Of a stretch of 44,492 nt of DNA, positions 9,267-29,459 are shown piece after piece. Numbering within the stretch: position 1 is the stretch's first letter; the number at the start of each line of letters is the position of its first letter. Below the pieces are notes generated by a model. That model was not told where the DNA came from, did no database searches, and saw only the letters and a list, made by a program, of their open reading frames with translations. Source of the DNA: an uncultured Clostridia bacterium (GTDB lineage Bacteria > Bacillota > Clostridia > Oscillospirales > Oscillospiraceae); NCBI GenBank assembly GCA_947306975.1, contig CAMZHU010000001.1:1-44492 (forward strand), in the 5' to 3' direction. The position numbers were made by a program, and so were the translations under genes.

Positions 9267-11195
9267 ATGATTAAAGTCAGGAATGAAAAGATCGACGAAG
9301 CGGTATTCATGAAGATGCGCGAAAAAGAGCTATCCGCGTGGCCGACCGGCCGTGAGGTGGATCTTGATGAAGCGATCGAATATCAGAAATCCCTCCCCCC
9401 GACGAAAAACTACGGATATGTCCTTCAGCAGTACAAAAAGGACGGCAAGTGCGGACTGAGCCCCCGCTCCGGCGTCCCTGTAGTCGAGGAAGAGATAAAG
9501 CTCCTCCACGGGCTGTATGACGCCGGCGTGCGTCTCTTCCCTTTCACGACCGACTCATACACGCGAAACCGGCAGTTTGAGAGGGCGCAGAAGGGGCTCG
9601 AGGAGAGCATACGCACTGGTCAGAAAAAGCTCAACGGCTATCCGATAATCAACCACGGCGTAAAGGTGACCCGTAAAGTCGTTGAATCAGTAGACGGAGC
9701 GTTCGACCCCCGCTGCTCCAAAGGCGCGAACAACTTCGTTGCGGAGATCGCGTTTGCCTCCGGCATGACCGCTATGCCTCACAGTTTCTTCGGCTGGCTC
9801 GCCGGCTATGACAAGCTTGCGACCCCTGAGGAATGCGTCACCGACATCCAGTATATGGGACGTCTCGTCGGCTATTATCAGGAACACGGCGTGACTCTGT
9901 CCACTGACCTGCACGGATGGATCCCCAACGGCGTCATACCCATGTATGTGAATATAGCCACGCAGATCATAGAGGGCATCGTCGCCTCTACCCAGGGCGT
10001 CCGGTCCCTGATGCCTCTCGTCAACTTCCAGGGCAACCTTGCACAGGACCTCGGCGAGTTCAAAGCGATAGAGCGCATGTACGACAAGTATCTCAAACAG
10101 GCCGGATTCCCGGATACGGTGGTTGCCGGCATGATCGGCCAGCAGTCTCCGCTCTTCGCATTCCCTCAGGACGTAGGCCGCGCGTTCGGATATATAAACT
10201 ATGTCGCGATGGCTGCTTCTCTTGCGAAACTGCCAGCATGCTCCGTCAAGACTATCGACGAAGCGACCGGCGTTCCCAGTCTGGAGTCACATATGCAGAC
10301 TTACCGCAGCGCGAACTGGATCTTCGACGTCATGAGCGAACAGAAGTTCGAGTTCGACTCGAAACAGGTCGATATCGAGCAGGAAATGGCTGAAAAAGCA
10401 GTCTCTGCGATCATCGACAAAGTCTATGAAATGGGCGACGGCGACATATGCGTCGGTGTCGTCAAGGCCGTCGAGGCCGGCGTTCTTGACAGCCCGTTCT
10501 CAATAAACGTCAACGTCCGCGACCTGTGCCTCGGTGCGCGCGATCTGTACGGCGCCTGCCGTTATATCGATTTCGGCAATCTGCCGATCCCCGATGAAGT
10601 CAGGAAATTCCACATGGAAAAGATCCACGAGCGCGAAAAGGCAGAGGGCACAAAGATCGACTACAAATCCTCTCTTGCCGACTTCTGGTCTCTCAGCCGC
10701 GGCATGCTCTGCGGAAAGACCGAGAAGAGCGAATACGAGGGAGCGATCGACAGCTTCCACCCTGCGATTGCAGAGAAGAAGCCCACTATAATCACCGGAA
10801 CCTCAGGCATAGACAGCCATGTCATCGGGACAAAGATCATATCCCGTGAACTCCGTGACAACGGGTTCAATGTAGTCGCTCTTGGCGCTCAGACTCCTCC
10901 GGAGGAGTTCATCAAGGCGGCCCAAGAGACAAACGCCAGCGCCATACTTATCACATCTCTCTACGGAATGGCGGAGATGGATCTACAGGGCTTCCGTGAC
11001 AAGTGCATCGAGGCAGGAGTGGGAGATATCCTGCTCTACATCGGCGGTATCCTGGGCGTCGGCATCCACGACTTTGAGGACGACGTAAAGACCTTTAAGA
11101 AGATCGGATTCGACCGTGTCTATCCGCCCGAGGCAGACGTCAAGAAATCAGTGCTCGACCTCTGCGGCGATCTTCGCGAGAGGGGCATCATCTGA
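9267..11195 (+). CDS. Fused glutamate-mutase-like adenosylcobalamin enzyme (GlmE/MutE-like TIM-barrel domain + GlmS/MutS-like B12-binding domain)
   Basis: Residues 1-~485 align by eye to clostridial GlmE (ELSAWPTGREVDLDEAIEY vs VLQQWPTGKEVDLQEAVDY; QYMGRLVGYYQEHGV vs QYCDRLVGFYEEQGV). Residues ~505-642 align closely to GlmS (GIDSHVIGTKI = DxHxxG; GFNVVALGAQTPPEEFIKAAQETNASAILITSLYG...LLYIGG...GFDRVYPP). Confidence 0.8.
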   Translation: MIKVRNEKIDEAVFMKMREKELSAWPTGREVDLDEAIEYQKSLPPTKNYGYVLQQYKKDGKCGLSPRSGVPVVEEEIKLLHGLYDAGVRLFPFTTDSYTRNRQFERAQKGLEESIRTGQKKLNGYPIINHGVKVTRKVVESVDGAFDPRCSKGANNFVAEIAFASGMTAMPHSFFGWLAGYDKLATPEECVTDIQYMGRLVGYYQEHGVTLSTDLHGWIPNGVIPMYVNIATQIIEGIVASTQGVRSLMPLVNFQGNLAQDLGEFKAIERMYDKYLKQAGFPDTVVAGMIGQQSPLFAFPQDVGRAFGYINYVAMAASLAKLPACSVKTIDEATGVPSLESHMQTYRSANWIFDVMSEQKFEFDSKQVDIEQEMAEKAVSAIIDKVYEMGDGDICVGVVKAVEAGVLDSPFSINVNVRDLCLGARDLYGACRYIDFGNLPIPDEVRKFHMEKIHEREKAEGTKIDYKSSLADFWSLSRGMLCGKTEKSEYEGAIDSFHPAIAEKKPTIITGTSGIDSHVIGTKIISRELRDNGFNVVALGAQTPPEEFIKAAQETNASAILITSLYGMAEMDLQGFRDKCIEAGVGDILLYIGGILGVGIHDFEDDVKTFKKIGFDRVYPPEADVKKSVLDLCGDLRERGII

Positions 11196-11320: not shown

Positions 11321-12253
11321 ATGGACTGGCTTGAGATAACACTTGATACGCGGCACGAGGACATTGACGCTCTATGCGAGCGTCTAGAATCGCTCGGCGT
11401 AAGCGGCATCGTGATAAACGACGAAACTGCCGTTACCGATTTCCTTGAGAAAGGCAAAAAGTACTGGGATTACGTAGACGATGAAGTAATGGACCGGGTA
11501 CGCGGCGTCTGCTCGCTTCAGTTCTATCTTGAGGACTCTGAAGACGGCCGTTCCGAACTGGAACGTATACGCGCTGCCCTCGACGTTCCGGAACTGAAGA
11601 CGCGTCAGGTGCGCGACGAGGACTGGGAAAACAACTGGCGCGAGTATTACAAACCCATCGAGACCGGGGAAAAGCTGGTCATCATACCGGAATGGGAGGA
11701 TGCTCCCGACTGCGGCAGCCGGGTCCCGCTGCGTCTCGACCCGGGTCTTATCTTCGGTACAGGTTCACACGCGACCACCCGGATGTGCCTTGAAGAACTC
11801 GAGAACTATCCTGCCGAAACGGTGATGGATCTCGGATGCGGCAGCGGTATACTGGCCATTGCCTCTCTCCTGCTCGGCGCCGGAAAGGCCTACTGCTGTG
11901 ATATAGATGAAAAAGCGCCGGACGTCGTACGTTCGAACGGTGAACTCAATGCACTCTATTCCGACCGTCTCATCGTATATGCCGGAGACATCCTGAGCGA
12001 CAGGCCTCTTCGCTCGGTACTCTCGCAACGCTCATACGATCTGATCCTTGCCAACATAGTGGCAGACGTTATCATCCGGCTCGCTCCGTTCGCGGCTGAG
12101 AGGCTGGCGCCTGACGGTATATTCATCTGTTCGGGCATCATCGAGGGCCGGCAGGACGAGGTGCTCTCCGCCCTCAGGAATAGCGGTCTTGAGATCGTAT
12201 CCTCTCGTTCACTCAGCGACTGGTACTGCTACACCGCCCGTCTCAAACGGTAA
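11321..12253 (+). CDS. prmA: Ribosomal protein L11 methyltransferase
   Basis: 310 aa. The N-terminal PrmA domain starts MDWLEITLDT. WENNWREYYKPI is present, and the SAM motif is DLGCGSGILAI. Confidence 0.9.
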   Translation: MDWLEITLDTRHEDIDALCERLESLGVSGIVINDETAVTDFLEKGKKYWDYVDDEVMDRVRGVCSLQFYLEDSEDGRSELERIRAALDVPELKTRQVRDEDWENNWREYYKPIETGEKLVIIPEWEDAPDCGSRVPLRLDPGLIFGTGSHATTRMCLEELENYPAETVMDLGCGSGILAIASLLLGAGKAYCCDIDEKAPDVVRSNGELNALYSDRLIVYAGDILSDRPLRSVLSQRSYDLILANIVADVIIRLAPFAAERLAPDGIFICSGIIEGRQDEVLSALRNSGLEIVSSRSLSDWYCYTARLKR

Positions 12254-12284
12254 ACCCCTATTTTACTGAAAGGAAGTGTCATAA

Positions 12285-13400
12285 ATGTGGAAAAAGAAGG
12301 CGCTTGCGCTCATACTGGCTCTTTGTCTCGCGGTATCGCTATGTCCTGTCACTGCTCTCGCTGAAATCAATCTCTTTTTCACCGCAGTCAATGACAATCT
12401 CCTTTTATTTAACGCGGGCTCGGTACCAATTTTTTCCAACGGTACGTTGTATATTCCATATACCGTGCTTACAATGAATGGATTTGGAGTTTACTATACA
12501 ACTATTAACTCTAGAAATATCCACTGTCTTTATTCAATTGAGAACACTCTCTTTTTTGATCTTGACAGCGGCGATTCTTTCAATGCTGAAGATGAGCATT
12601 TTGCCGCATCCGCAATTATCTACGGCGGTATGCTGTACGTTCCTGCATATTTCACATGCGGTCAGTTCGGACTGGGCTGCAGCGTGATCACCTCCGCTCC
12701 AGCACCCATCTTACGCGTGACGTCCGGCAGCGAGTCATACTCCAATTCCGCTCTCGCGTCTGTTTATTCTTCCCATATACAGGCCGTCATCGACTCGATG
12801 ACCACTCCGGATACACCGGGCCAGCCCGACCCTGCCCCGGACATGCCCAAACCCGATGACTACAGCGACGTGACTCTGTTCCTCGGTTTCCGCGGCTTAC
12901 TGGACGGCAATTGCGTAGAAATCCTGGATACACTCGACGATTTCGGCGTACGGGCATGCTTCTTCATTTCTGAAGACGATATTCTGGGTTCTCAGGACGA
13001 TATACGGCGCATCTGTGGAAGCGGTCACAGCGTGGGCATCTATCTGTCAGACGGCAGCCGGGAAGAATACGCCGCTGTTGCCGACCTGCTGTTTGAAGCT
13101 GCGATGACAGCTACGATCATCGTCACGTCCGGACCCGATACGGAAGAAACCTCAAAGGAAACCGCCCGTAAGCAGGGCCTCCTCTTCCGTGCAGCCGACG
13201 ATATCTGCGAAGAAGGCTTTTCCGCCGCTTCAGCTGTTTCGAAACTCTCCAGGGTCTCCGGCAACAGGCAGCTGATACTGTTCGAATGCTATGAAGGCGC
13301 GGCCGATGAGCTTCGCGTTTTCCTTCGTTACGCTCTCGACTCCAAATACATTGTCGATCAAATCAACGAGGTCACCGTCTATACCCCCGATATCGCGTGA
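12285..13400 (+). CDS. Secreted protein: stalk (copper amine oxidase N-terminal-like) domain + polysaccharide-deacetylase-like domain with degenerate catalytic motif
   Basis: Signal peptide ending VTALA|E. The N-terminal ~110 aa resemble stalk domains (AVNDNLLLF...PIFSNGTLYIPYTVL). The C-terminal part resembles a NodB fold (DFGVRACFFIS...GHSVGIYL), but LGFRG stands where TFDDG is expected. Confidence 0.45.
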   Translation: MWKKKALALILALCLAVSLCPVTALAEINLFFTAVNDNLLLFNAGSVPIFSNGTLYIPYTVLTMNGFGVYYTTINSRNIHCLYSIENTLFFDLDSGDSFNAEDEHFAASAIIYGGMLYVPAYFTCGQFGLGCSVITSAPAPILRVTSGSESYSNSALASVYSSHIQAVIDSMTTPDTPGQPDPAPDMPKPDDYSDVTLFLGFRGLLDGNCVEILDTLDDFGVRACFFISEDDILGSQDDIRRICGSGHSVGIYLSDGSREEYAAVADLLFEAAMTATIIVTSGPDTEETSKETARKQGLLFRAADDICEEGFSAASAVSKLSRVSGNRQLILFECYEGAADELRVFLRYALDSKYIVDQINEVTVYTPDIA

Positions 13401-13654: not shown

Positions 13655-13699
13655 CAAAAAAGCCCTGAAGCTGCATAGACTCAGCTTCAGGGCTTTTTT
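13655..13699 (-). terminator. Bidirectional-type terminator ending the long minus-strand gene string
   Basis: AAAAAAGCCCTGAAGCTG-catagact-CAGCTTCAGGGCTTTTTT, 10 nt after the ligase stop at 13709. A/T runs flank both sides. Confidence 0.7.
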
Positions 13700-13708
13700 G
13701 ACCTGTCA

Positions 13709-15286
13709 TCACTTCATCCCGAGCCGCTCTTTCGCAATAGCGCGCAGACGGCGTCTGTCGACCTTTCCGGTCGCATTCAGTGGCAGCCGGTCAAAGAACA
13801 GTACATATCGCGGGACCTTATAGGCGCTCAAGCGCCCGCGTACTATAGATTGGACATCTTCCGCATCCATTTCAGTGCCCTCGTTCAGGACGACACATGC
13901 GCACGCTTCCTCCATATAGTGCGTGTCAGGTACATCGATGATCTTGACACGGGCAATACGGCTGTCGGAGAGAAGCAGGTTTTCTATCTCCTCGGGAGAT
14001 ATGTTTTCACCTCCGCGTATGATGAGGTCCTTTATCCTGCCGCGGTAATAGAGATTCCCCTGCGGATCCGCCTTCGCCAGATCACCGGTACGTATCCATC
14101 CGTCAGCGCTCTTTACCCGAGCCGTCTCAGCCGGCATTTTGTAGTATCCGATCATACCGTTGAACCCTCGGAAGTATATCTCCCCCACGATCCCGGGCGG
14201 CACCGGGTTTCCGCCGCGTGATCTCACTGAGACCTCGACCATCGGAAATGCCCTGCCCAGGCTCTCGCTGCGCAGTTCAAGACTGTCGTTAACTGAACCG
14301 CAGGTTATGCCTCCTGTAGCCTCGGTCTGGCCGAGCGAAGGCAAGAGCGTATAACCGAGTTCATCACAGATCCGGCGGAAGAACTCGGGCGGATATGAAG
14401 ATCCGCCGATAAGTCCGGTGCGCAGAGAAGAAATGTCCGCGTTCATCTCCTTCTGCCTTCGGAGCAGTGCTGAGAAAAGTGTAGGAACGGCGTTCAAAAC
14501 GGTACATTTCTCACGCTCGATCATCTCCAGGATGATGTCAGTCCGCCTCCCTGCCGGGAAGCAGAGACATGCGCCTGCCGCCAGCGCCGCAAGAGCGGTA
14601 CCGGTAATCGAAAAGCAATGGAAAAGCGGCAGTACCGAACAAAACCGGTCGTTCTCGTCAGCATCCAGGCCGGCGGCCTGCGCAAATATGGTGTTGACTC
14701 TCGCAAAATGCGTTGTGATCACAGGACGTGCGCTGCCGGTAGAGCCTGATGAAAACAGTATCGTATCAGGATCGTCTTCCGTTACGGAACTCTCTGCCTC
14801 TTCGAGCTCCGCGGGCGCTGCCATAGGCAGATCGAACAGATACCGATACTTGTATCCCGGTTCCTGCTGAAGAGTAAATATCCTGTCAGCGTCGGGCTGT
14901 TCCAGTGAAACGCACAGTTCCGGAAAAACATTCTCCCTGAACTCGTGGTCGATCACCATGTAACCGACATCGGCAGATCTCACGCAGCCGCGAAGCTCCT
15001 CCACGCCGAACGCAGTGCAGATAGGTACGACGACCGCACCGATCCGCCAGAGCGCATAGAAGCATATAAGTGTCTCAGGCGCGTCGTTCGCAAGAACGCC
15101 TACGTGTACGCCCTTGCGTATACCTGCTGCAAGAAAACGCCTCGCGTACTGACCGCTTGTCTCAAGAAGCTCGCTGTAGGTAAGTCTCAGCGTATCGGAA
15201 ACAACAGCTTCCCGTTCCGGAAAACGCTGCGTCTGCATATGAAGCACCTGTCCTATTGATTTGTGAAAGAGTTTAGGCGCCGTCAT
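13709..15286 (-). CDS. AMP-forming acyl-CoA synthetase (class I adenylate-forming enzyme)
   Basis: Motifs LFSSGSTGSARPV, LGQTEATG, GWIRTGDLA, GRIKDLIIRGGENISPEEIE and NATGKVDRRRL. I prefer the ATG at 15286 (MTAPKLFHKS, GGAAAGG upstream). The ORF track extends it to 15340. Confidence 0.85.
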   Translation of the reverse strand: MTAPKLFHKSIGQVLHMQTQRFPEREAVVSDTLRLTYSELLETSGQYARRFLAAGIRKGVHVGVLANDAPETLICFYALWRIGAVVVPICTAFGVEELRGCVRSADVGYMVIDHEFRENVFPELCVSLEQPDADRIFTLQQEPGYKYRYLFDLPMAAPAELEEAESSVTEDDPDTILFSSGSTGSARPVITTHFARVNTIFAQAAGLDADENDRFCSVLPLFHCFSITGTALAALAAGACLCFPAGRRTDIILEMIEREKCTVLNAVPTLFSALLRRQKEMNADISSLRTGLIGGSSYPPEFFRRICDELGYTLLPSLGQTEATGGITCGSVNDSLELRSESLGRAFPMVEVSVRSRGGNPVPPGIVGEIYFRGFNGMIGYYKMPAETARVKSADGWIRTGDLAKADPQGNLYYRGRIKDLIIRGGENISPEEIENLLLSDSRIARVKIIDVPDTHYMEEACACVVLNEGTEMDAEDVQSIVRGRLSAYKVPRYVLFFDRLPLNATGKVDRRRLRAIAKERLGMK

Positions 15287-15468
15287 GACTGTCTGCCTTT
15301 CCAGTCCGCGGTAATGCTGCGGACAAATAAACGGACCCATCCGAGAGAGTTACTTCTAAAGTCACTCCCGTCAGCAGGATCCTCCACGAAAAGAACACAT
15401 CCGATACCGCGGTTTTTTATGTCCGCGGCGGGCGGAGACGTTCCCCCGCCCGCTCAGCGGACCGTTCT

Positions 15469-17094
15469 TTATTTATCGATATACGCTCCGAGGCCGCCCC
15501 ACTTTTCGTGGAAGATGCCCTCGTCCATCGTCTTGAGTTCGGGAGAGATCACAGGCTCAAATCCGATCCTGTCAAGAACATCCTTCTGGAGGTCTATGCC
15601 GGGCGCTATCTCAACAAGGGTCATCTTATGATCTATGAGACGGAAAACTGCGCGCTCAGTGACATAGAGGACTTCCTGATCCTCCGGAGTGTACTGGCCG
15701 GCAAACGTGATCTGACCGACTTTCTCCACAAACTTCTGTATCGTGCCTTCCTCGACTATCTCAAGCTTGCCGTCGCCGACTTTCAGTTTTGCCTTGCCCA
15801 TGAGCGTGCCGGCAAAAATGACTTTCGGGGTAGCGCGGGTGATATCGATGAATCCGCCGGGGCCGGTAAGCCTCTTGCCCATACGGCTGACGTTGTTGTT
15901 GCCGTCGCCGTCGGCTTCGCCGATGCCCAGGCATGTCAGGCTGAGGCCGCCGCCGCTTATAAGATCGAACATCTCGTTCTGTGTGATAATGGCCTCGGGA
16001 TTGTATGCGCTGCCGAAGCTCGGAAGCGCGGATGGTACGCCGCCCACCATTCCGCTCTCGGTGCTCATGACGACGTCATTGATGAAGCCTTCCTCCGCGA
16101 CGACCTTTGCCACGTCAGCCGGCATGCCGACGCCGAGGTTCACGAGGTCGCCTTTCTTGAGCTCCATCGCGACGCGGCGGCAGATGACCTTTCTCTCGTC
16201 AAACGGCAGCGGCTCGATGCTGTCGAGCGGGATGCGGATATGTCCAGAGTAAGAGGGCTCCCAGTATGTTCCCTCTGCCTGCCAGCACGATTTGGGATCC
16301 TTCGCCACTACGACGTAGTCGACGAGCACTCCGGGTATCTTTATATCCTTGGGATTGAGGGTCTCTTTCTTCGCGACGTATTCGACCTGTACTATAACGA
16401 TGCCTCCGCTGTTCTTGACCGCGGTCGCGACGGAGAAGCCCTCGTTAATAACGCTCTCATGAGCAAAAGAGATATTGCCGTTCTCATCGGCTATGGTACC
16501 TCTCAGGAGAGCAACGTCAGCCTTGAAAGAAGGATAGAACAGATACTCTTCGCCGTTGAACTCGACGAGTTTTACCAGTTCGTCCTTGGCGCATGCATTC
16601 ATACGGCCGCCTTCTACGCGCGGATCGACGAAAGTTCCGAGGCCCGTCTTCGTTATAAGTCCGGGACGGCCCGCGGCGATCTCACGCCAGAGATTGATGA
16701 TCACGCCCTGCGGGAGACAGTATGACTCGACCTGTTCCTTGCGTGCCAGGTCGCACATGGCGAATGCGCTGCCTATATGTGCGCTTGTCCATTTCGTCAC
16801 GAGGCCGGGTCCGGCTTCGCCGAAGCGGGATACGCCGCGGACGCCGTGATCGTTGTCGGGCTCTGGAAGTCTTGAACGCTCCCATCCGTCAAACTGGTTG
16901 CCATAGCCCCAGTCGCCCATGGCGCTGCCCTGCTTGAGGTTGAGATTGCACGGATGTCCGGTCTCGCGGAAGTTGTCTCTTATCGCGCAGGCAAGCTCTT
17001 CAGCCCAGCCTGAAAGGCCCATTCCGGCAAGACCAACTGTCGCTCCGTCCGGAATGAGGGCAGCCGCTTCTCTTGCTGTAATGAATTTTGCCAT
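15469..17094 (-). CDS. Acyl-CoA:carboxylate CoA-transferase, propionate CoA-transferase (Pct) family
   Basis: 541 aa, colinear by eye with C. propionicum Pct (GLITKTGLGTFVDPR, NSGGIVIVQVE, VLVDYVVV, TESGMVGGVP containing the catalytic Glu, GGFIDIT). Confidence 0.85.
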   Translation of the reverse strand: MAKFITAREAAALIPDGATVGLAGMGLSGWAEELACAIRDNFRETGHPCNLNLKQGSAMGDWGYGNQFDGWERSRLPEPDNDHGVRGVSRFGEAGPGLVTKWTSAHIGSAFAMCDLARKEQVESYCLPQGVIINLWREIAAGRPGLITKTGLGTFVDPRVEGGRMNACAKDELVKLVEFNGEEYLFYPSFKADVALLRGTIADENGNISFAHESVINEGFSVATAVKNSGGIVIVQVEYVAKKETLNPKDIKIPGVLVDYVVVAKDPKSCWQAEGTYWEPSYSGHIRIPLDSIEPLPFDERKVICRRVAMELKKGDLVNLGVGMPADVAKVVAEEGFINDVVMSTESGMVGGVPSALPSFGSAYNPEAIITQNEMFDLISGGGLSLTCLGIGEADGDGNNNVSRMGKRLTGPGGFIDITRATPKVIFAGTLMGKAKLKVGDGKLEIVEEGTIQKFVEKVGQITFAGQYTPEDQEVLYVTERAVFRLIDHKMTLVEIAPGIDLQKDVLDRIGFEPVISPELKTMDEGIFHEKWGGLGAYIDK

Positions 17095-17196: not shown

Positions 17197-17841
17197 TCAG
17201 GCCTTGCCGGTGAGTATCTCGGCAGCCTTATTGGCGCACGCAGCGGCGTCCTCGGTGTAATAGTCTGCACCGACTTCGTCGCAGAAGGCCTGTGTAACAG
17301 GCGCGCCGCCGATCATTATCGTAACTTTGTCGCGGATACCGGCATCCTTGATAGCCTCGATGACTTCGCCGATAGCCGGCATGGTGGTCGTAAGAAGAGC
17401 CGAGCAGAGCACGAGATCGCACTTCTCATTGATAGCGGTCTCAACGAACTTCTCCTTCGGAACGTCGACGCCGATGTCGATGACTTCGATATTCTTGCTC
17501 TCGACCATGAGACGGACCAGGTTCTTGCCGATATCGTGCAGGTCGCCTGCAACGGTTCCAAGAACGGCCTTGCCGATAGGCTCGTTGCCTTCAGCGTTAA
17601 GCATCGGCTTGATGAGAGCTGTACCTGTGTTCATGGCGCGCGCCGCTACGAGCACCTCAGGCACGAAAGCTTCATTACGGGTAAAACGGTCGCCCACGAT
17701 GCCCATTCCGTGGAGCAGTCCGTCATTCAGGATCTCCTGTGCGCTGCAGCCTTCCTCGATGGCCTTCGGCACGAGTTCCTTTATCAGCTTAGCTTTGCCT
17801 TTCTCTACTGCTGCGGAGATTTCTTCGATTGTAGTAGACAT
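17197..17841 (-). CDS. Methyltransferase-cognate corrinoid protein (MtaC/MtbC/OdmA type: B12-binding cap + Rossmann domain)
   Basis: 214 aa with GDLHDIGKN (DxHxxG), SALLTTT and IMIGGAPV. The N-terminal helical cap domain contains FVPEVLVAARAM. Confidence 0.9.
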   Translation of the reverse strand: MSTTIEEISAAVEKGKAKLIKELVPKAIEEGCSAQEILNDGLLHGMGIVGDRFTRNEAFVPEVLVAARAMNTGTALIKPMLNAEGNEPIGKAVLGTVAGDLHDIGKNLVRLMVESKNIEVIDIGVDVPKEKFVETAINEKCDLVLCSALLTTTMPAIGEVIEAIKDAGIRDKVTIMIGGAPVTQAFCDEVGADYYTEDAAACANKAAEILTGKA

Positions 17842-17901
17842 ATTTCTTCGTCTCCTTATCCACTTTGCGGCTTCTCAGCCTGTACTTTTTCTGACTCTAA
17901 T

Positions 17902-17930
17902 ATAATAACCTCAAAGGGTTTTCGTGTAAA
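17902..17930 (-). promoter_or_regulatory. Candidate internal promoter in front of the corrinoid gene (TTTACA-17-TATTAT)
   Basis: The minus strand reads TTTACAcgaaaaccctttgaggtTATTAT, within a 137-nt AT-rich spacer. Confidence 0.4.
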
Positions 17931-17978
17931 GTATTTTCTTTATATAATTGGTATTTATTTATTATTCTTTCCGTAAAT

Positions 17979-20015
17979 TTACAGGAGTTTCCCCCTGGCG
18001 CAGGCTGTCACGTCAGCGCCTATACGCGCAAGCCCGAAATCGGTGTCAAAGTCCTTTTTCTTGACCTCTACGGTCACGGTCACTTCACCCTTTGCGCCGC
18101 AGCGTTCAGCTTTCTTTGCTGCCCGCTCCTTAGCGATAACGGTAGCACGCCTGATCGCCATATCCAGATCGTCGAAAGCTTCTCTGTTTTCTCCGGATAT
18201 GAAGAAAATACCGTCATTCTCATCCGCTTTGGGCGTGATATAGTCGGCCTTAATATGCACGGTCTCGTACACGCATACGTTTCCGAGCACAGCGCCCAGT
18301 GCATTGGATACTCCTGAGTATTCAGAAACCCGCCATTCGGTATGAAGGGCTCTGGCCACATCGGGCAGGAATATATGTATAGGCGCGCCTGCGCCGAGAA
18401 GAACAGCGTCCGTTGAGAAGGTGTTCCTGAAAAAGCGCGTTTTCTCTTCGGATATCTCCTCTGCAAACGCCTGTTTGGCAAGTGTTTCTAGTTCCTTTGG
18501 CGCATAAGGCGACCGCTCCGTACCGTATGCGTCGCTCCAAAGCATCCTTACTATCTTACAGTACAGTTTTTCCTTAATCTGCCTGTATACCTCGTCGATA
18601 ATCCACTCCTGCTCCCTGCCGGTGGATCTGCTTATGAAACCAAGCGCAAGGCTCGCTGCGCGCTCGGCTGATCCGGATATCAGCTTTCCGTAGGCTCCGC
18701 ACGTCATATCACGAGCGTCGCCCCTGAGTATAAAAGCGTCTGTCGGCGTAAAACCGCAGCGCAGCACAGCTCCCAACTGTTCAAGACGTTCCGTACGCAC
18801 ACTGTATCTGTTAGTACCGATAGCACGCGCAAGCTGCAGCACGCTTTTCGGCCCTTCCCTCAGCGCTTCGCAGATCCTTCGGTCATCCTCTGAAAAACGT
18901 CTGTCTCCGTCGTCTATCTCTTTAAGCAGCAAGAAATGCTCGTAGAGAGCGACGGAACAGCCGTCATACCATTCCTCGGTGCTCTCAAGCTCCGGGAGCA
19001 CCTCCGGAAAACGGCTGGCAAGTATCGATACCGGCATGACGCGCCTGCTGTCGAGCGAAATTGAACGCCGGCTGTACCAAACGCGGCTGTCTCCGCCCAG
19101 GGCAAGAGTCTCGATGCTCACCCCGCGTACGAAGGTCTGCCATCCGGCCAGGCGTATCCCGTTCGCGTCGATCTTAGGACTGCCGTTTTTGATGATCGCC
19201 ATATCGCTCGTCGTGCCGCCCATGTCGATCACGACCGCCTGGCGTTCGCCGAAAAGTTCACCCGCTCCTTTAACGCTCGCAGTAGGCCCGCATACGAGGG
19301 TCTCTACAGGATAGCTGAGCGTGTATTCCTCGCTCACGAGTGAGCCGTCGCTCCGCATTATAAGTATCGGAAGGTTTATACCATCCTCTTCGAGGACGGC
19401 ATGGATGGCATCGAAAAACTCGGCTATGACCTTCGACATGCGCGCGTTCAGCAGCGCGCCTGCGCCGCGTTTTATAACGTTTACTTCCCTGAATATCTCA
19501 TATGAACACGTCACCGGGATGTCGGAAAAAGCAGCTATGCGCTCTGCGGCCTGCCGCTCGTAGAGCCCGTCGTTGGTCCTCGCACCGATCTGAGCCACTG
19601 CGATACCGTCGTAGTGCTTTGTGATGCTCGGCAGCATCCCGTCGAGCGCGGCCCAATCCGGTTCGATCCCCTTATCGGGATCTCCGTCGATAAAGCGCAT
19701 GAATTCCATGCCCTCAAAACCGTATGAGGACAGCGTCCACTCAACGGCAGCCTTGCTGGCGCCTATAAAGAGGAGGCAGATGTTCTCGCCTTTCTTTTCC
19801 ACGCAGGCGTTCGTGGCCAAAGTCGTCGATAACGAGATATATGAAGCCCCGTCTATAAGATCTCTCGGGAGCTGACGCAGGACCTCCCGTATTCCGATCT
19901 CAAGATCCTCATGGGTGGTCATCGCCTTCGCGTATGTCAGTATCCTGTGGTCTTCAAGGTCGTAGACGACAGCATCAGTCGAAGTGCTGCCTGTGTCTAT
20001 GCCGATTGCCGTCAT
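17979..20015 (-). CDS. Hydantoinase/oxoprolinase A (HyuA)-like ASKHA ATPase, solitary (no HyuB partner)
   Basis: 678 aa. ASKHA phosphate motifs IGIDTGSTSTDAV and VVIDMGGTTSDMA are present, and the length and architecture match HyuA-type subunits. There is no Cys cluster. The start lies 14 nt after the folC stop. Confidence 0.7.
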   Translation of the reverse strand: MTAIGIDTGSTSTDAVVYDLEDHRILTYAKAMTTHEDLEIGIREVLRQLPRDLIDGASYISLSTTLATNACVEKKGENICLLFIGASKAAVEWTLSSYGFEGMEFMRFIDGDPDKGIEPDWAALDGMLPSITKHYDGIAVAQIGARTNDGLYERQAAERIAAFSDIPVTCSYEIFREVNVIKRGAGALLNARMSKVIAEFFDAIHAVLEEDGINLPILIMRSDGSLVSEEYTLSYPVETLVCGPTASVKGAGELFGERQAVVIDMGGTTSDMAIIKNGSPKIDANGIRLAGWQTFVRGVSIETLALGGDSRVWYSRRSISLDSRRVMPVSILASRFPEVLPELESTEEWYDGCSVALYEHFLLLKEIDDGDRRFSEDDRRICEALREGPKSVLQLARAIGTNRYSVRTERLEQLGAVLRCGFTPTDAFILRGDARDMTCGAYGKLISGSAERAASLALGFISRSTGREQEWIIDEVYRQIKEKLYCKIVRMLWSDAYGTERSPYAPKELETLAKQAFAEEISEEKTRFFRNTFSTDAVLLGAGAPIHIFLPDVARALHTEWRVSEYSGVSNALGAVLGNVCVYETVHIKADYITPKADENDGIFFISGENREAFDDLDMAIRRATVIAKERAAKKAERCGAKGEVTVTVEVKKKDFDTDFGLARIGADVTACARGKLL

Positions 20016-20029
20016 TTGGTGCGCTCTCC

Positions 20030-21865
20030 TTATACTTGGTCATCAAACCTGTATACAGTCTCTTCTGTTACAACAGTTCCCGGCTTCACATCAGTGATCT
20101 CGCATGATGTCCTGTCGAGGTGCTGGGCCTCGAACGCCACACATACCGTCACTGCAGACGGGCATCTGACAAGGTAACGGTCATAGTATCCGCATCCGTG
20201 GCCGAGCCGGCCTCCGAAACCGTCGAATCCGACGCAAGGGACTATAACGGCGTCTATCTCTTCCGGAGGGATCAAATCGGAGCGTTCCTTCATCGGAGAC
20301 TTTATCCCGTACGCGCCCGTCACCCAGGCGTTCTCGTCACGAGGGATCATCGCTTCCATTTCTCCCCCGTCGCCGGTAACCGGATAGGCTATCCTTGCCC
20401 CGTTCCGGGCCGCATACCTGTCGAATCCGCCAACGTCCGCCTCTCCGCGGACCGCACAGTACGAGAGGATGGTCCTTGCCCCCTTGAGTTCCGGCATTTC
20501 CTCAAGCCTTTCACATATGCGTGCGCTGTACTCGCTGCGCTGTTCTTCTGTAAGCGCCAGACGGGCCGCGCTGCAGTTTTTTCTCTGCAGCTTTTTCAGC
20601 TTTCCCGGAAAAACGCTGCGCACGTGACCGGCCATATAAAGTGAGCCGAATGAGACGACCGGCACGCCGGTCTCCCCTGCCAGTTCGAGCGCTCTCTCTA
20701 CGCCGTCTTCTATGCTCTCGCAAGCTTCTGCCTCTGCTCCCCGTGATACTAGATACTTCGCAAGGTCGCCGCTTATGAGCCTGCGGGGACTGTCAGGGGT
20801 AACGCATACGAATCTGTCTGCGTAAGGCAGCATCAGGGACATTATGGTCTCATAATCCTTGTCCGCCAGAACGCCTGTGAGAAATATGACTTTTTTATCC
20901 GGCAGGAGCATGTCGAGGCTCTTCGTCAATGCCTCCGCGCACTGCGGGTTGTGTCCGCCGTCCAGGATAAACAGCGGATCACGGCTCAGCACTTCCATAC
21001 GCGCCGGCCACTGGACAGTGCGAAGTCCTTCATCAACAGCCATCTCGGGTATATCCCAGCCACGGTCACGCAGCGCCTCAGTTCCGGTCAGCACCAGTGC
21101 AGCGTTATGAAGCTGGTGCGGTCCCAAAAGAGAAAGCGAATACTCTCTGCCGTCCCATCTGAAACGCTGTCCGTCAAGGGTGTACCCAAGCGGCTCGAGC
21201 CGCGAGAAATCTACGCAGTACAGCGGGACTTCCATATCGGCGCAAACGCTTTTTACGACTTCGGTCACTTCGGGAGCCCCGTCGTAGCATACGCATGAAC
21301 AGCCGTTCTTGATGATCCCGGCTTTTGTGGAGGCGATCTCTTCTAGCGTGTTGCCGAGGTATTCGGTGTGCTCCAGACCAATATTCGTTATTACGGCAAG
21401 TTCAGGCGCGTCTATCGCGTTGGTCGAATCAAGTGCTCCGCCCATGCCAACCTCAAGGACGACGGCGTCGCAGTGTTCTTCACAGAAATACTGCATGGCT
21501 ATGGCCGTAACAAGTTCAAACTGACTGGGGTGATCCTCCATATGTTCGGCGATATTCATGACGCGCTCCGTAAGCTCCGCCAGCCTTCCGCCCGGTATAT
21601 CCCTGCCGTCTATCCTGATCCTCTCATTGAAGACCTGGATATACGGGGATGTATAGAGTCCGGTCCTGTAACCGGCCGCTCGAAGGATGGCGTCGAACAT
21701 GGCGCAGGAACTGCCTTTCCCGTTGCTCCCGGCAACGTGGATAAACTTCAACCTCTTCTGGGGATCCCCCAGCTGCGCAAGCAGTTCCTTTGTCCGTCCC
21801 AGCCCTAGACGGGTCGTGCTCCAGCCGTAATTCTCTATATAGGAAATCGCTTCCTGCTCAGTCAT
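20030..21865 (-). CDS. folC: Folylpolyglutamate synthase/dihydrofolate synthase fused to 5-formyltetrahydrofolate cyclo-ligase
   Basis: The N-terminal ~425 aa are FolC/Mur-ligase like (HVAGSNGKGS, ITNIGLEHTEYLG, DGGHNP). The C-terminal ~180 aa are MTHFS like (ILSYCAVRGEAD..., VPCVGFDGFGGRLGHGCGYYDRYL). The start overlaps the folT stop (ATGA). Confidence 0.85.
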   Translation of the reverse strand: MTEQEAISYIENYGWSTTRLGLGRTKELLAQLGDPQKRLKFIHVAGSNGKGSSCAMFDAILRAAGYRTGLYTSPYIQVFNERIRIDGRDIPGGRLAELTERVMNIAEHMEDHPSQFELVTAIAMQYFCEEHCDAVVLEVGMGGALDSTNAIDAPELAVITNIGLEHTEYLGNTLEEIASTKAGIIKNGCSCVCYDGAPEVTEVVKSVCADMEVPLYCVDFSRLEPLGYTLDGQRFRWDGREYSLSLLGPHQLHNAALVLTGTEALRDRGWDIPEMAVDEGLRTVQWPARMEVLSRDPLFILDGGHNPQCAEALTKSLDMLLPDKKVIFLTGVLADKDYETIMSLMLPYADRFVCVTPDSPRRLISGDLAKYLVSRGAEAEACESIEDGVERALELAGETGVPVVSFGSLYMAGHVRSVFPGKLKKLQRKNCSAARLALTEEQRSEYSARICERLEEMPELKGARTILSYCAVRGEADVGGFDRYAARNGARIAYPVTGDGGEMEAMIPRDENAWVTGAYGIKSPMKERSDLIPPEEIDAVIVPCVGFDGFGGRLGHGCGYYDRYLVRCPSAVTVCVAFEAQHLDRTSCEITDVKPGTVVTEETVYRFDDQV

Positions 21866-22377
21866 GTATGCGCTCTCTTTCCGATCTCGTGGATCACTTT
21901 AACGATTATGGGTATGAATATGAGCTGTACAGCCGTAAGTATGCCGGTCTGCGGCAGTCGCCCGACAAGCGTCGGCACATACGGCATCCCGTACAGCACT
22001 TTGAGCCAGTATGTGTTGAGTATCAGGCTCAGCACCCACTGCTGGATCACGACAGCGATCACTATGCGGACCATCGTCTGTTTATCGTGCAGCAACGAGC
22101 CGTAAAGCAGGCCCGTCAAAGCCGCTGTCACGGTGAAGCCTGGAAAATACGGTCCCACCGGGAAAATGAACGCGCCCAGTATATCGGCGAGTATCCCGAT
22201 GATCATTGCCGGGACAGGACCGAACATTACGCCCGCTATTACTATGGGGATGAAGTCAAGGCTGAGCTTGATCGTCTGAGTCGGTCTGAACGTTACAAAA
22301 TGCGCTATTACTACTTCGAGCGCTATAAGAACGCCCATTACTGCCAGCATCTTCGTACTGATTTTCTGCCTGTTCAT
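21862..22377 (-). CDS. folT: Folate ECF-transporter substrate-capture (S) component
   Basis: 171 aa from the ATG at 22377 (MNRQKISTKMLAVMGVLIALE...), with about 6 TM helices. AGGAG lies 8 nt upstream and a THF riboswitch precedes the gene. The ORF-track extension to 22554 runs through the riboswitch and is not coding. Confidence 0.8.
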   Translation of the reverse strand: MNRQKISTKMLAVMGVLIALEVVIAHFVTFRPTQTIKLSLDFIPIVIAGVMFGPVPAMIIGILADILGAFIFPVGPYFPGFTVTAALTGLLYGSLLHDKQTMVRIVIAVVIQQWVLSLILNTYWLKVLYGMPYVPTLVGRLPQTGILTAVQLIFIPIIVKVIHEIGKRAHT

Positions 22378-22380
22378 AGA

Positions 22381-22592
22381 AAAAACTCCTTTCGCGGCAG
22401 TAGCCACAAAAGGAGTTTTATCCGACGCTTTACCTCGTTCCCTCCCCGATCGGGCGGGAAACGGGTTTTCGCGAGGTATGTCCACCTTTAGTGGCAGCGG
22501 ATGCGGCTCCGGCACCGCAACGCGATGCGTTTTCGTCCAACGGCAACTTCCCATCCGCTGACACTTGACGCGCCGGAACCTACTCTACCTCT
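22381..22592 (-). promoter_or_regulatory. THF-I riboswitch (aptamer ~22493-22589) plus expression platform with an RBS-sequestering terminator hairpin (22381-22420)
   Basis: The minus strand reads GGUAGAGUAGGUUCCGGCGCGUCAAGUGUCAGCGGAUGGGAAGUUGCCGUUGGACGAAAACGCAUCGCGUUGCGGUGCCGGAGCCGCAUCCGCUGCC. It shares the conserved blocks AGAGUAG, GCGUnAAGUGU, AUGGGAnGU, ACGAA and GCAUCCGCU with the E. siraeum THF aptamer as I recall it. P1 (GGUAG/CUGCC) and P2 (GUUCCGGC/GCCGGAGC) can pair. Downstream, AAAACUCCUUU-N16-AAAGGAGUUUUUU ends 3 nt before the AUG. Confidence 0.85.
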
Positions 22593-24172: not shown

Positions 24173-25171
24173 TCAGGCTCTGGCCTTTTTGATCTCTTCG
24201 GTGAGGACCGGAAGCACCTCGAAGAGGTTGCCGACGATACCGTAGTCCGCTACGTCAAAAATGGGAGCGTCGGGATCCTTGTTGATGGCGATTATGACAT
24301 CGCTGGAAGTCATACCGGCAAGATGCTGGATAGCGCCGGAGATGCCGCATGCGATGTAGAGCTTGGGACCGACGATCTTGCCGGTCTGGCCGACCTGATG
24401 CGCATGGGATATCCAGCCCGCATCGACAGCGGCGCGGGAAGCGCCGACGGTCGCACCGAGGACCTCCGCCAGCTCACGGATGGGTTCAAACCCTTCCGGT
24501 CCGCCGACGCCGCGGCCGCCGGATACGATTATATCCGCGCCTTCGAGGTCAACGTTCTCGCCGCCCATGTCCTTGATGACTTCGAGCACCTGCGTACGGA
24601 TAACGTCCGCAGCTGCGATCTCTTCCTTGATGATCTCGGCTTTCGCCTCGCCGGGTTCGCCCTTTTTGAAGGCGCCGGGACGGATGCTGCCTATCTGGGG
24701 CCTCTGCTCCGGGCAGGAGAGGACTTCCATGATGCTGCCGCCGTAGGCGGGGCGGGTCCACTCGATACTGCCGTCATCGCAGACGCCGAGAGCAGTGCAG
24801 TCGGACGCAAGGCCGGTCTTCAGACGGCATGCGACTACAGGAGCAAGTTCGCGTCCGTCGGGGGTGGCTCCGAGGAGGATAGTCGCCGGGCCGTATTTCT
24901 CGGCAAGCGACGCCAGGGCCTTGGCAAAAGCTTCAACGGTGAATTCCTTGTATTCCGGGCCGTCAACAACGATGACTTTATCAGCGCCGTACTCAGAGGC
25001 CGCCTTTACAGCCGCGTCGGCTCCGCAGCCGATCACGACGGCGACGAGAGCGCCGCCCTGCTTTCCGGCAAGCTCCTTGCCGGGTGTCAGCATCTCTATG
25101 CCGACGTTCTTCGCGGTGCCGTCCTCGTTAGTTTCTATAAATACCCACAGGTCTTTGGTCTTGGCTTCCAT
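24173..25171 (-). CDS. etfA: Electron transfer flavoprotein alpha subunit
   Basis: 332 aa with a C-terminal FAD domain ([43 protein letters not shown]). There is no N-terminal ferredoxin domain. Confidence 0.9.
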
Positions 25172-25190
25172 TTCTGTGTACCCCCTTCCC

Positions 25191-25994
25191 TCAGATAACG
25201 CGAGCGTCGCTCAGGAGAGCGAACAGCTTCTTCGCTGAATTCTCGTCGCTGTCTTCCTGTATCTTGATGCCGCTCTTGGATCTCTGCGGGACATAGGTCT
25301 TGATGACCTTTGTGGGAGATCCGGCAGCGCCAACTGCGGAAGCGTCGAGGCCGGCAAGATCGGCGCCGGTCAGTGTCGGGATCTGGGCGCGGTTTGCAGC
25401 CATCTTGCGCTTGATGGTGGGATAACGAGGATCCCATGAAGGCTTCGTGAATGTCACGAGGCAGGGGGTCTTCACGGCAACGACCTTAACGCCGCCGTCG
25501 ATCTCCTTGTTGACCTTGAGCGTCTCGCCCTCGTCAAAGGCCTCGAGGCCGTAGGTGACGAGAGGATAACCGAGATACTCGGCGAGCTGGGGGCCGACCT
25601 GGGCGGAATCGCCGTCGGTCGCCTGCTTGCCGCAGAATATGGCGTCGAACTTGCCCTCGGTCTCTTCGATCTTTTTAACTGCGCAGCAGAGGATATAAGC
25701 GGTAGCGAGAGTGTCGGAACCGTCAAAGGCGTCGTCGGAGATGAAATACGCTTTGTCCGCGGCGATGGCAAGACCTTCCTTAAGCGCCTTCTCCACGCCT
25801 GCGGCGCCGATGGTCACGAGAACAATCTTGGTATCGGGATCCTTGTCCTTGATGCGGGCAGCCGCCTCGAGTGCATAGCTGTCGAACGGGTTGATGATCT
25901 TCGGTACCTCGTCGGTGTTGAGGGTGTTTTTTGCGGGATCGGCTTTGAGCTCGGCCGGATCCGGAACCTGCTTGATGCAGACTAATATGTTCAT
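25191..25994 (-). CDS. etfB: Electron transfer flavoprotein beta subunit (bifurcating-type signature)
   Basis: MNILVCIKQVPD..., NPFDSYALEAA, CGKQATDGDSAQVGPQLAE. The last motif resembles, from recall, the A. fermentans EtfB motif GRQAIDGDTAQVGPEIAE. Confidence 0.9.
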   Translation of the reverse strand: MNILVCIKQVPDPAELKADPAKNTLNTDEVPKIINPFDSYALEAAARIKDKDPDTKIVLVTIGAAGVEKALKEGLAIAADKAYFISDDAFDGSDTLATAYILCCAVKKIEETEGKFDAIFCGKQATDGDSAQVGPQLAEYLGYPLVTYGLEAFDEGETLKVNKEIDGGVKVVAVKTPCLVTFTKPSWDPRYPTIKRKMAANRAQIPTLTGADLAGLDASAVGAAGSPTKVIKTYVPQRSKSGIKIQEDSDENSAKKLFALLSDARVI

Positions 25995-26117
25995 ATCGAT
26001 CCATCCTTCCTGTTTGTTATTGTCCGGTACGCCAGCCCCTCTGTACTGGACCGGGCCGGTCTATATGCCCGCGCCCGGCAGCAGCAACTGCGCCGGGTGC
26101 GGATAAGAGTCATTAGA

Positions 26118-26909
26118 TCATTTCCAGATCTCGCCGATGAGCGGATACTGGGTCTTGTAGCCGATGAGCGAGAGATAGAAACCGCACTGCGGATAATTCT
26201 TAACAAGCTCCTTCAGCGTTTCGATACCGTCGTAATTCGTGTCTGTCGGGATCTCGTAGCCGACTACGTCGGAGAGGAGATATGCCTTTTTGGACATCCA
26301 AGCCTCTGCGATCGTGGGGACCTCGGGATACTTGGCGAGCAACTGGTCAAAGACCTCGTTTTTGCCGAGTATCGGCTGGGTGATGATGAAGGTCGCGCCG
26401 GCGGCAAGCTTGCGCTCCATCTTTGCGAATTCAGCCTCGGGCGGCTCGTAGGGGTTGAATGCGACGCCGAGAACGAAATCGGGATAATTTGCTTTGATAT
26501 ACTTGCAGAGCTCGACGCTGGTGACAGTCACGCAATCGATGCCGATGTCCTTGGGCTCAAGCCTGGACATATCGGGAGCGCCGTCGCCGCTGACGACGAG
26601 GATGTACTTGATGCCGAGGTTCTGAGCGGTCGTGAGTATCTCGTCCAGATTGGCCTTGGAGTGGAAGGTGTTGAGGTGGAGCATGACCTGGTCGGGGTTT
26701 ACAGGCAGCTCGAGCTCGGAGATCATCTCAGTGCCCTGGAATGCCTTGCGGCCCATGGCGTTGTCGGTGAGGCAGATGCAGTATCCGTCTTCCATGACGC
26801 GGGTATACTTCTCAGCGAACTTCTCAAGATCGCCTTCGATGTCTTCGGTGTTCTGCTTCGGGGGGATTATCTCGATGTGATAGCGCTTGTCAAGAATATG
26901 ATTCTTCAT
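26118..26909 (-). CDS. Divergent short methylenetetrahydrofolate reductase (MetF/MTHFR)-like protein
   Basis: 263 aa. Colinear blocks against E. coli MetF: IEIIPP (FEFFPP, Glu kept), ICLTDNA (VSVTYGA), LHLNT (PHLTC), IKYILVVSGD (IRHIVALRGD, Asp kept), VAFNPYEPPEAE (VAAYPEVHPEA), AAGATFIITQP (DAGANRAITQF, Gln kept). No metV-like gene is nearby. Confidence 0.65.
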   Translation of the reverse strand: MKNHILDKRYHIEIIPPKQNTEDIEGDLEKFAEKYTRVMEDGYCICLTDNAMGRKAFQGTEMISELELPVNPDQVMLHLNTFHSKANLDEILTTAQNLGIKYILVVSGDGAPDMSRLEPKDIGIDCVTVTSVELCKYIKANYPDFVLGVAFNPYEPPEAEFAKMERKLAAGATFIITQPILGKNEVFDQLLAKYPEVPTIAEAWMSKKAYLLSDVVGYEIPTDTNYDGIETLKELVKNYPQCGFYLSLIGYKTQYPLIGEIWK

Positions 26910-28655: not shown

Positions 28656-29459
28656 TTACTTCTTCTGTACGCCGAACTTGTCGTCGTTGTAGGCCTCCAT
28701 GTACTCCATGCAGTACTCGTCCTCTTCCATGAGGACTTCGGTGGCGTACATAGCGCCGAGCATATCGCGGTTGGTCGGATCCATGATGGCGCTGTCCATG
28801 CCGAGGTAACGGGCGATGGTCAGGAAAGCCATGTTCATGGTCTTGCGGGACGGGATACCGAAGGAGATGTTGGAAAGTCCGCTTGTGATGTGGATGTCAG
28901 GATACGCGTTGCGGATGTACTTCGTTACAGCCGCGAATCCGGTGAATGCCTCGGGCTTGGTGCCCACGCTGAATACCAGCGGGTCGATGTGGAGGCGGGA
29001 CGGAGCTATGTTGTACTCCTTCGCCTTCACCATAAGTCTCTCAAAGATGGAGATACGCTCTTCAACGCCGTCGGGGATCTTGTTGCTGTCGCAGAGAAGC
29101 GCGACGCATTCCCACTTGGTGTCGGCTATGACAGGGAAAACCGTCTCGATCTTGTTGCCCTCGAGAGAAACGGAGTTGATGAGGCCGGGCTTTTTGCAGA
29201 ACGGCATGGCATCGACGATGCTCTGAGCGTTGGGGCTGTCGATGCAGATCTTCGCATCGCTTACTTCCTGTACCAGGTCGATGAGCCACTTCAGCGTCTC
29301 CACGTCCTTGTCGACGACTGACGAGCAGACGTCGATAAAGTCCGCGCCGCCCTCGGTCTGACGGATTGCGAGATCGCGGATCCAGTCCTCGTTCTTCTCT
29401 GCTATTGCCTTTGCTACGGAGGGGATAGCGCCGTTGATTTTTTCGCCGATGATGATCAT
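28656..29459 (-). CDS. Methyl-corrinoid:tetrahydrofolate methyltransferase (pterin-binding DHPS-like barrel, MT-II type)
   Basis: 267 aa. MIIIGEKING, GGADFIDVC, GLINSVSLEG and TSGLSNISFG are the pterin-binding-domain blocks seen in AcsE/MtrH/MetH-type and demethylase MT-II proteins. Confidence 0.8.
   Translation of the reverse strand: MIIIGEKINGAIPSVAKAIAEKNEDWIRDLAIRQTEGGADFIDVCSSVVDKDVETLKWLIDLVQEVSDAKICIDSPNAQSIVDAMPFCKKPGLINSVSLEGNKIETVFPVIADTKWECVALLCDSNKIPDGVEERISIFERLMVKAKEYNIAPSRLHIDPLVFSVGTKPEAFTGFAAVTKYIRNAYPDIHITSGLSNISFGIPSRKTMNMAFLTIARYLGMDSAIMDPTNRDMLGAMYATEVLMEEDEYCMEYMEAYNDDKFGVQKK

Follow-up and report, generated by a model that had tools for sequence, protein, structure and literature searches.

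A HyuA-type ASKHA ATPase without HyuB as a probable accessory factor of corrinoid methyltransferase systems

Introduction

The stretch of DNA analysed here, called the window in its entirety, comprises 44,492 nucleotides from an uncultured Clostridia bacterium of the Oscillospiraceae (assembly GCA_947306975.1, contig CAMZHU010000001.1). On its minus strand, at 17979..20015, it encodes P0001, a HyuA-type ASKHA ATPase of 678 aa. We find that the family of P0001 is tied to corrinoid methyltransferase systems, a link that is supported by gene neighbourhood, by co-occurrence and by gene fusion. Its members probably function as ATP-dependent accessory factors of these systems and do so without a HyuB subunit. 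A preliminary description of this DNA had proposed an accessory function for the adjoining corrinoid protein, and these three lines of evidence support that proposal.

Methanogenesis from methylamines and methanol is driven by corrinoid methyltransferase systems, as are some methionine synthesis and the demethylation of betaines, carnitine and methoxylated aromatics by acetogens. In the textbook view these systems consist of MT1, the corrinoid protein, MT2 and an activator of the RACE/RamA type. The family described here, embedded in archaeal mtt/mtb operons and in bacterial MttB operons, would be a conserved ATP-using fifth protein of these systems that has so far been unexamined.

Results

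Gene neighbourhoods in bacteria and archaea

We compared 88 loci, of which 80 stem from species-representative genomes and 7 from relatives, the window being the last. Genes were called with a codon-usage model that reproduces the genes of the window, and parts of corrinoid methyltransferase systems were recognised with hidden Markov models (HMMs) built from recurrent neighbour clusters. A corrinoid protein, RACo, MttB, a URO-D-like methyltransferase or MT2 is encoded within 5 kb of the family gene in 25 of the 88 loci, and two or more such parts are found within this distance in 14. Their density declines from 1.40 per 10 kb at less than 1 kb from the family gene to 0.24 per 10 kb at 7.5-10 kb. 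MTTB, URO-D, RACo, B12-binding, DUF1638 and DUF2284 make up the sole neighbour theme that recurs. In a family tree built with FastTree, loci with this context turn up throughout, and their distribution requires 18 changes, of which at least 15 are forced. It occurs in Lachnospiraceae, Oscillospiraceae, Eubacteriaceae, Clostridiaceae, Peptococcaceae and Eggerthellaceae, in a Bacteroidaceae bin and in one archaeon.

With HYU for the family gene and CoP for the corrinoid protein gene, example operons read CoP-MttB-HYU-x-RACo-UroD, UroD-UroD-CoP-RACo-MT2-HYU and MT2-RACo-DUF2284-HYU. A complete 4-Mb genome contains the order CoP-MttB-MttB-x-CoP-MttB-HYU-UroD-RACo. In another arrangement the HYU gene overlaps the start of the RACo gene, and a RACo-DUF2284 pair lies directly upstream of HYU in loci L025 and L065. 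The family sits closest to the genes of activation and maintenance (RACE, DUF1638, DUF2284) and not to one type of substrate methyltransferase.

Locus L012 contains, between HYU and RACo (11931-12722, plus strand), a gene for a 264-aa protein with a weak match to Met_synt_B12, the MetH activation domain (E 4e-4); it is another candidate accessory gene. Two sets of apparent neighbours were discarded. The neighbour clusters c3, c5 and c7 are antisense open reading frames (ORFs) of corrinoid and RACo genes, and the "GlmE" matches near homologues arise only from the B12 domain of the query hitting corrinoid proteins.

The archaeal set consists of genomes from the order of the Methanomethylophilaceae metagenome-assembled genome behind locus L083. 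This order, Methanomassiliicoccales, provided the clearest signal of the comparison: 79 of 81 genomes encode full-length members, mostly in 2-5 copies and some of them in tandem. Among 20 paralogue loci from five genomes (L104-L123), 11 lie beside a corrinoid protein, a URO-D methyltransferase or RamA. The operons have orders such as mttB(Pyl-split)-mttC-mtbC-mtbB-HYU-UroD...ramA and CoP-HYU-UroD-RamA, and the methyltransferase operons that we examined encode URO-D proteins of the MtaA/MtbA type, not pterin-binding methyltransferases. At least four conserved contexts can be told apart among the archaeal paralogues, the methyltransferase operons included. One group is found with genes for a DGC-domain protein, a HAD-like protein and a PfkB kinase, and another adjoins a GPR1/FUN34/YaaH-type channel and a Na/H exchanger. 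Because of these several distinct contexts, the archaeal paralogues may have diverged in role.

Co-occurrence with a reductive activator

We sampled 300 genomes from the class of the window, all with a completeness of 90% or more; 31 of them, from 16 taxonomic families, carry a full-length family member. The counts for carriers and non-carriers are as follows.

RACo_C_ter: 30/31 carriers, 83/268 non-carriers
MttB: 10/31 carriers, 7/268 non-carriers
DUF1638: 17/31 carriers, about 19/268 non-carriers
GlmE: 5/31 carriers, 19/268 non-carriers
HyuB (Hydantoinase_B): 0/31 carriers, 10/268 non-carriers

The preliminary description had named possible links of P0001 to corrinoid proteins, to folC and to GlmE. 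Across genomes, the first link is borne out for the parts of corrinoid methyltransferase systems, and those to folC and GlmE are not.

The same counts bear on the proposal that P0001 takes the place of RamA or RACE as a cysteine-poor protein that uses ATP to activate the corrinoid protein reductively. In favour of this, an ASKHA ATPase adjoins a corrinoid protein, no Fe-S activator is encoded inside the window itself, and flavin-reductase genes lie beside a few homologues. However, RACo is present in nearly all carriers, often as the adjacent gene, and the genome of the window encodes a RACo-type activator elsewhere. This gene is split over the end of contig 38 (10351-11228) and the start of contig 26 (1-306) and is followed by a DUF2284 metal-binding protein (contig 26, 228-854). 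Across 162 aligned family members from Bacteria and Archaea, no cysteine is conserved between the two groups, and there is no CxxC and no redox-cofactor motif. Cys71 and Cys242 are nearly invariant in bacterial members and are replaced by I/V and S, respectively, in archaeal ones; we dropped them as a redox or metal site since they are not kept in the archaeal members. RACo itself gives a weak Foldseek match to the model of P0001 (3zyy, E 1.6e-5, TMq 0.18), which reflects generic ASKHA likeness. Since RACE/RamA co-occurs with, adjoins and overlaps the family genes and the genome of the window has its own RACo, P0001 probably works alongside the activator and not instead of it. A replacement of RamA is very improbable.

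The genome of the window also contains one URO-D-family methyltransferase, on contig 6. Two other loci have close homologues of it as immediate neighbours of HYU genes.

Fusion with DUF1638

An exhaustive search of the cluster representatives revealed seven representative proteins of 915-959 aa in which DUF1638 is fused to the HyuA-like chain. The fusion is also found in one genome of the 300-genome sample, and no fusion longer than 1188 aa was found in the family. DUF1638 genes lie directly 3' of HYU in one Peptococcaceae locus and in one archaeal locus. In Phaeobacter inhibens, transposon fitness data show that a split B12-dependent methionine synthase requires a DUF1638 protein as well as a RamA-like protein (Price et al. 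2018, PMC5764234). The two proteins were assigned to B12 reactivation in that work, and their phyletic patterns are near-identical (PMC5764234). Both are also induced on N-osmolytes in Ruegeria pomeroyi (PMC12478193).

Fold and family assignment

P0001 carries both motifs named in the preliminary description, AIGIDTGSTSTDAV and VVIDMGGTTSD, in the translation of 17979..20015; the ORF described there is real and lies on the minus strand. The Pfam models Hydant_A_N (68.5 bits, cut-off 25.2) and Hydantoinase_A (97.5 bits, cut-off 22.9) both match, the latter over model positions 1-136 of 291 only. P0001 scores far below every cut-off of the NCBIfam equivalogs for caprolactamase alpha, GlmL and ApcA, and the ESM Atlas returned only generic names for the family. 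A profile of 60 homologues compared with the Protein Data Bank matches HyuA-type subunits over the N-terminal 320 residues (E 2e-26 to 6YRA).

The structure of P0001 was modelled with AlphaFold (AF2; pLDDT 86.3, pTM 0.82). VIA-align superimposes the model on acetophenone carboxylase alpha (5l9w_b) with Z 28.8 over 513 residues, on caprolactamase alpha (6yra_A) with Z 27.7 and on acetone carboxylase beta (5svc_B) with Z 24.1, the matches spanning 513-529 residues. Generic ASKHA proteins such as archerases, DdrA (13.6) and pantothenate kinases reach Z values of at most 15. According to this model, P0001 is a bona fide HyuA-type ATPase over its whole chain and is neither GlmL-like nor RACo-like. 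Classification by HMM and by structure, which the preliminary description had left between these types, thus gives the Hydantoinase_A type. The following elements are found along the chain of P0001.

Residues 5-14: phosphate-1 motif
Residues 264-271: phosphate-2 motif
Residues 306-310: LGGDS
About residues 368-422: winged-helix-like insert
Residues 423-426: TPTD motif
Residues 541-575: GAP...NALGA

In the 162-member alignment, D7, G9, T11, T13, D14, D264, G266, G267, T268, D271, G307, G308 and D309 are 97-100% conserved, and the same holds for the HyuA signature motifs. Modelled alone, segment 326-422 reaches pLDDT 90.6. Its last 50-55 residues match winged-helix domains with Z of about 5, no HyuA structures are among the top matches of the segment, and one homologue shows a DprA_WH Pfam match at the equivalent position. 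Together these matches weakly suggest a winged-helix insert that is specific to the family. The family itself is large, with more than 4331 full-length matches among the candidates scored and 783 clusters at 50% identity (E <= 1e-30).

The window contains at 9267-11195 (plus strand) a gene for a 642-aa divergent GlmE-like mutase fused to a C-terminal B12-binding domain. Its Met_asp_mut_E score is 455 bits, compared to about 770 for canonical GlmE in other genomes. The gene comes after an MFS transporter gene (7832-9103), and no GlmL/MutL gene is found nearby. P0001 had been considered as a GlmL/MutL-like reactivase for this fused mutase, which lies 7 kb away, and a weak MutL Pfam match at its N-terminus (residues 6-54, 33.5 bits) is in line with this idea. 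In the test against NF040745 / PF13941, however, P0001 reaches 31.5 bits compared to a cut-off of 475, with only residues 4-55 matching, and its fold is of the HyuA type. The mutase is encoded on the other strand and is separated from P0001 by unrelated genes, no GlmE is found in the other 87 loci, and 26 of the 31 carriers are without GlmE. We therefore give almost no weight to a function as mutase reactivase.

Absence of HyuB and the case for a stand-alone enzyme

The preliminary description had called P0001 solitary, and this holds beyond the window. No Hydantoinase_B was found in the genome of the window, which is 64% complete, nor in any of the 31 carriers; it is present in 10 of the 268 non-carrier genomes. 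We conclude that the family works without HyuB and that the partner was either lost or never had.

An ATPase of this fold could also be a stand-alone metabolic enzyme, namely an ATP-dependent kinase or an enzyme that phosphorylates an amide or enol, with a small molecule as its substrate. The fold and all catalytic-type motifs match those of catalytic HyuA subunits, which act on lactams, hydantoins or acetone. Most loci are without a fixed neighbour, and genes for flavin reductase, CobW and heavy-metal ATPases adjoin family genes a few times. The substrate of such an enzyme would have to be one that happens to be common in methylotrophic anaerobes. In contrast to this expectation, the linked substrate methyltransferases vary between MttB, MtbB and URO-D types, and the methyl acceptor also appears to vary, with the pterin-binding MT2 in bacteria and URO-D proteins of the MtaA/MtbA type in archaea. 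Therefore, no common small-molecule substrate is evident except the cobamide, and a variant of this explanation takes the cobamide itself as substrate, for example through activation of an amide group. In addition, there is no HyuB to complete a hydantoinase-type reaction, and the DUF1638 fusion and the overlap with RACo point to the machinery of cofactor maintenance. We consider a stand-alone enzyme unlikely.

Setting of the gene in the window

P0001 belongs to a long string of genes on the same strand, with the following features. THF stands for tetrahydrofolate.

28656..29459, minus strand: pterin-binding methyltransferase (MT2, methylcorrinoid:THF type), which heads the string
22493..22589, minus strand: THF riboswitch aptamer (RF01831, 88.3 bits), ahead of folT, folC and the ATPase gene
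21862..22554, minus strand: FolT, S component of a folate ECF transporter
20030..21865, minus strand: FolC::MTHFS fusion, 611 aa
17842..17978, minus strand: AT-rich spacer of 137 nt between the P0001 gene and the corrinoid protein gene
17197..17841, minus strand: corrinoid protein, 214 aa, B12-binding_2 and B12-binding, MtgC/MtbC-like
15469-17094, minus strand: CoA-transferase, FadX/Pct-like, 3' of the corrinoid protein
13709-15340, minus strand: acyl-CoA ligase, 3' of the CoA-transferase
13655..13700, minus strand: strong terminator-like hairpin with a 19-bp stem, which closes the string

The order is MT2, Fhs, an MTHFR-like protein, EtfB, EtfA, FchA, FolD and the THF riboswitch, followed by FolT, FolC::MTHFS, P0001, the corrinoid protein, the CoA-transferase, the acyl-CoA ligase and the hairpin. 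P0001 starts with ATG 14 nt past the stop of FolC::MTHFS, and the AAGGAG Shine-Dalgarno sequence ahead of it overlaps the end of the FolC::MTHFS gene. Both this distance and the 137 nt to the corrinoid protein gene agree with those given in the preliminary description. A promoter-like site (17930-17902) lies in the spacer together with a Shine-Dalgarno sequence, and no terminator-like site was found in it (17842..17978). A second corrinoid protein of this type was not found in the genome of the window at its 64% completeness. Another genome of the genus keeps the gene order and has a P0001 copy that is 86% identical.

The THF riboswitch, also named in the preliminary description, is real. One reading proposed there makes P0001 an ATPase linked to folate or pterins, and its probable co-transcription with folT and folC::MTHFS behind this riboswitch would be the ground for it. 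The distance of 14 nt, the verified riboswitch and the order kept in the sister genome favour this assignment. Outside the two genomes of the genus, however, a folC homologue is found in only one of 86 loci, 7 kb away. The family is near-universal in Methanomassiliicoccales, where it occurs in methylamine operons with URO-D-type rather than pterin-binding methyltransferases. A hydantoinase-like family linked to tetrahydromethanopterin (H4MPT), mentioned in the preliminary description, does not apply either. P0001 does not match the corresponding NCBIfam model at E <= 0.01, and the related structure 3cet aligns with Z 15 over 267 residues only. A folate or pterin function is quite improbable. 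The link to folT and folC::MTHFS is confined to the genus and most likely reflects how this lineage packs its genes for the oxidation of methyl groups on THF.

Several further observations concern the string itself. The riboswitch aptamer and the longest FolT ORF share about 60 nt, and the Pfam match of this ORF starts at residue 64-68; because of this overlap, the true start of folT is probably an internal start codon further downstream. The MTHFR-like protein (263 aa, window 24173-26909, minus strand) matches its 287-position Pfam model over positions 12-187 only and is directly followed by EtfB and EtfA inside the C1 cluster, which may be an Etf-coupled arrangement of methylene-THF reductase. 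The CoA-transferase follows the corrinoid protein also in the sister genome, and together with the acyl-CoA ligase it may be a clue to the methylated substrate, which could for instance be an acid activated with CoA.

In the family tree, the copy of the window and that of its sister lie on a long branch beside a Lachnospiraceae sequence (WIN, L092, L004), and copies from other genomes of the taxonomic family of the window are placed apart (L093, L095). This long branch apart from the copies of its own family suggests that the P0001 gene and perhaps the whole cluster were acquired horizontally.

Discussion

Since the family sits closest to RACE, DUF1638 and DUF2284, we read P0001 as an accessory factor that acts beside RACE. 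It would bind and hydrolyse ATP at the ASKHA cleft and spend the energy on the corrinoid protein or on its cobamide. The likeliest task would be maintenance in the form of cofactor loading, cofactor exchange or a conformational step, and chemical activation of the cofactor is a further candidate. Such a step would complement the ATP-driven reduction of Co(II) to Co(I) by RACE, in analogy to the role that ASKHA reactivases have for adenosylcobalamin enzymes. In the window, P0001 would serve the adjoining corrinoid protein of the methyl-to-THF oxidation cluster, with its expression coupled to folT and folC behind the THF riboswitch.

The literature offers one parallel. A search for hydantoinase or oxoprolinase together with corrinoid, MttB or acetogen gave the proteome paper on 'Ca. 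Formimonas warabiya' DCMF as the sole relevant match. A 668-aa 'N-methylhydantoinase A/oxoprolinase' is encoded there between MtgB and MtgA in a glycine-betaine methyltransferase cluster (PMC9768040). It is co-induced with the cluster on glycine betaine (log2 fold change -7.2; PMC9768040). No paper was found in this search on the function of the HyuA-like family, nor one that links the family to Methanomassiliicoccales.

A number of points weigh against an accessory function. The protein of DCMF is tied to the family by length, annotation and context only and not by sequence. The immediate neighbours of family genes are very heterogeneous, with 127 Pfam families in 82 upstream genes, and about 72% of the examined loci have no corrinoid methyltransferase gene within 5 kb. 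The co-occurrence counts stem from a single 300-genome sample evaluated by Fisher tests, whose p-values overstate the signal because relatedness makes the genomes non-independent. No DUF1638 turned up in the genome of the window or in three carrier genomes of its taxonomic family, so that it is not an obligatory partner. The fold of P0001 is that of catalytic subunits that phosphorylate small molecules and not that of a known chaperone, and the mechanism is inferred by association only. To our knowledge, published corrinoid methyltransferase systems have been reconstituted in vitro without such a protein, which is therefore not essential for catalysis.

Taking these points together with the neighbourhoods, the co-occurrence and the fusions, we still regard an ATP-dependent accessory factor as the probable function of the family. 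A more specific and tentative proposal is that a second ATP-dependent maintenance system exists, distinct from RACE/RamA, and that the HyuA-like ATPase powers it, together with DUF1638 in those genomes that have it; we put this forward as a possibility that we do not yet favour. Such a system might, for example, supply the corrinoid protein with its cobamide, exchange the bound one or activate the cofactor chemically. This second system would be near-universal and multi-copy in trimethylamine-consuming gut methanogens. If the family does serve in the upkeep or loading of the cobamide, this could explain differences between activity in vivo and in vitro. It would also bear on the heterologous expression of corrinoid systems and on trimethylamine removal in the gut, and a large group of 'orphan HyuA' genes would gain a function.

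Comparison with known systems

HyuA-type subunits (5L9W, 6YRA, 5SVC/5M45 and the N-methylhydantoinase 9H03) share the whole-chain fold with P0001 at Z 24-29 over 513-529 residues. Common to both are Hydant_A_N and Hydantoinase_A, the ASKHA ATP motifs and the motifs STTLATN, GP..S, TPTD, G.GAP and NALGA. In contrast to these subunits, the family of P0001 is without a HyuB-type partner in all carrier genomes that we searched. P0001 matches only 136 of 291 Hydantoinase_A positions and has a probable winged-helix-like insert, and its family keeps company with corrinoid methyltransferases and not with lactam or ketone catabolism.

Similar to P0001, the RACE/RamA proteins (RACo, 3ZYY/4C1N) are ASKHA ATPases that are genomically attached to corrinoid proteins. 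P0001 belongs to another ASKHA branch, however, without RACo_middle or RACo_C_ter, without an Fe-S domain and without conserved cysteines. The two families co-occur and do not replace one another. Around corrinoid methyltransferases, DUF1638 (PF07796) is part of one accessory gene set with the P0001 family; it is fused to this family in several lineages and adjacent to it in others, and it has an unrelated fold of about 160 aa. The reactivases of adenosylcobalamin enzymes (DdrA 2D0O, GlmL/MutL, EutA) are ATP-driven ASKHA proteins and offer a functional analogy to the proposed role. Their likeness to P0001 is that of generic ASKHA proteins (DdrA, Z 13.6), and in contrast to them the P0001 family is not linked to mutases or dehydratases but accompanies corrinoid methyltransferases.

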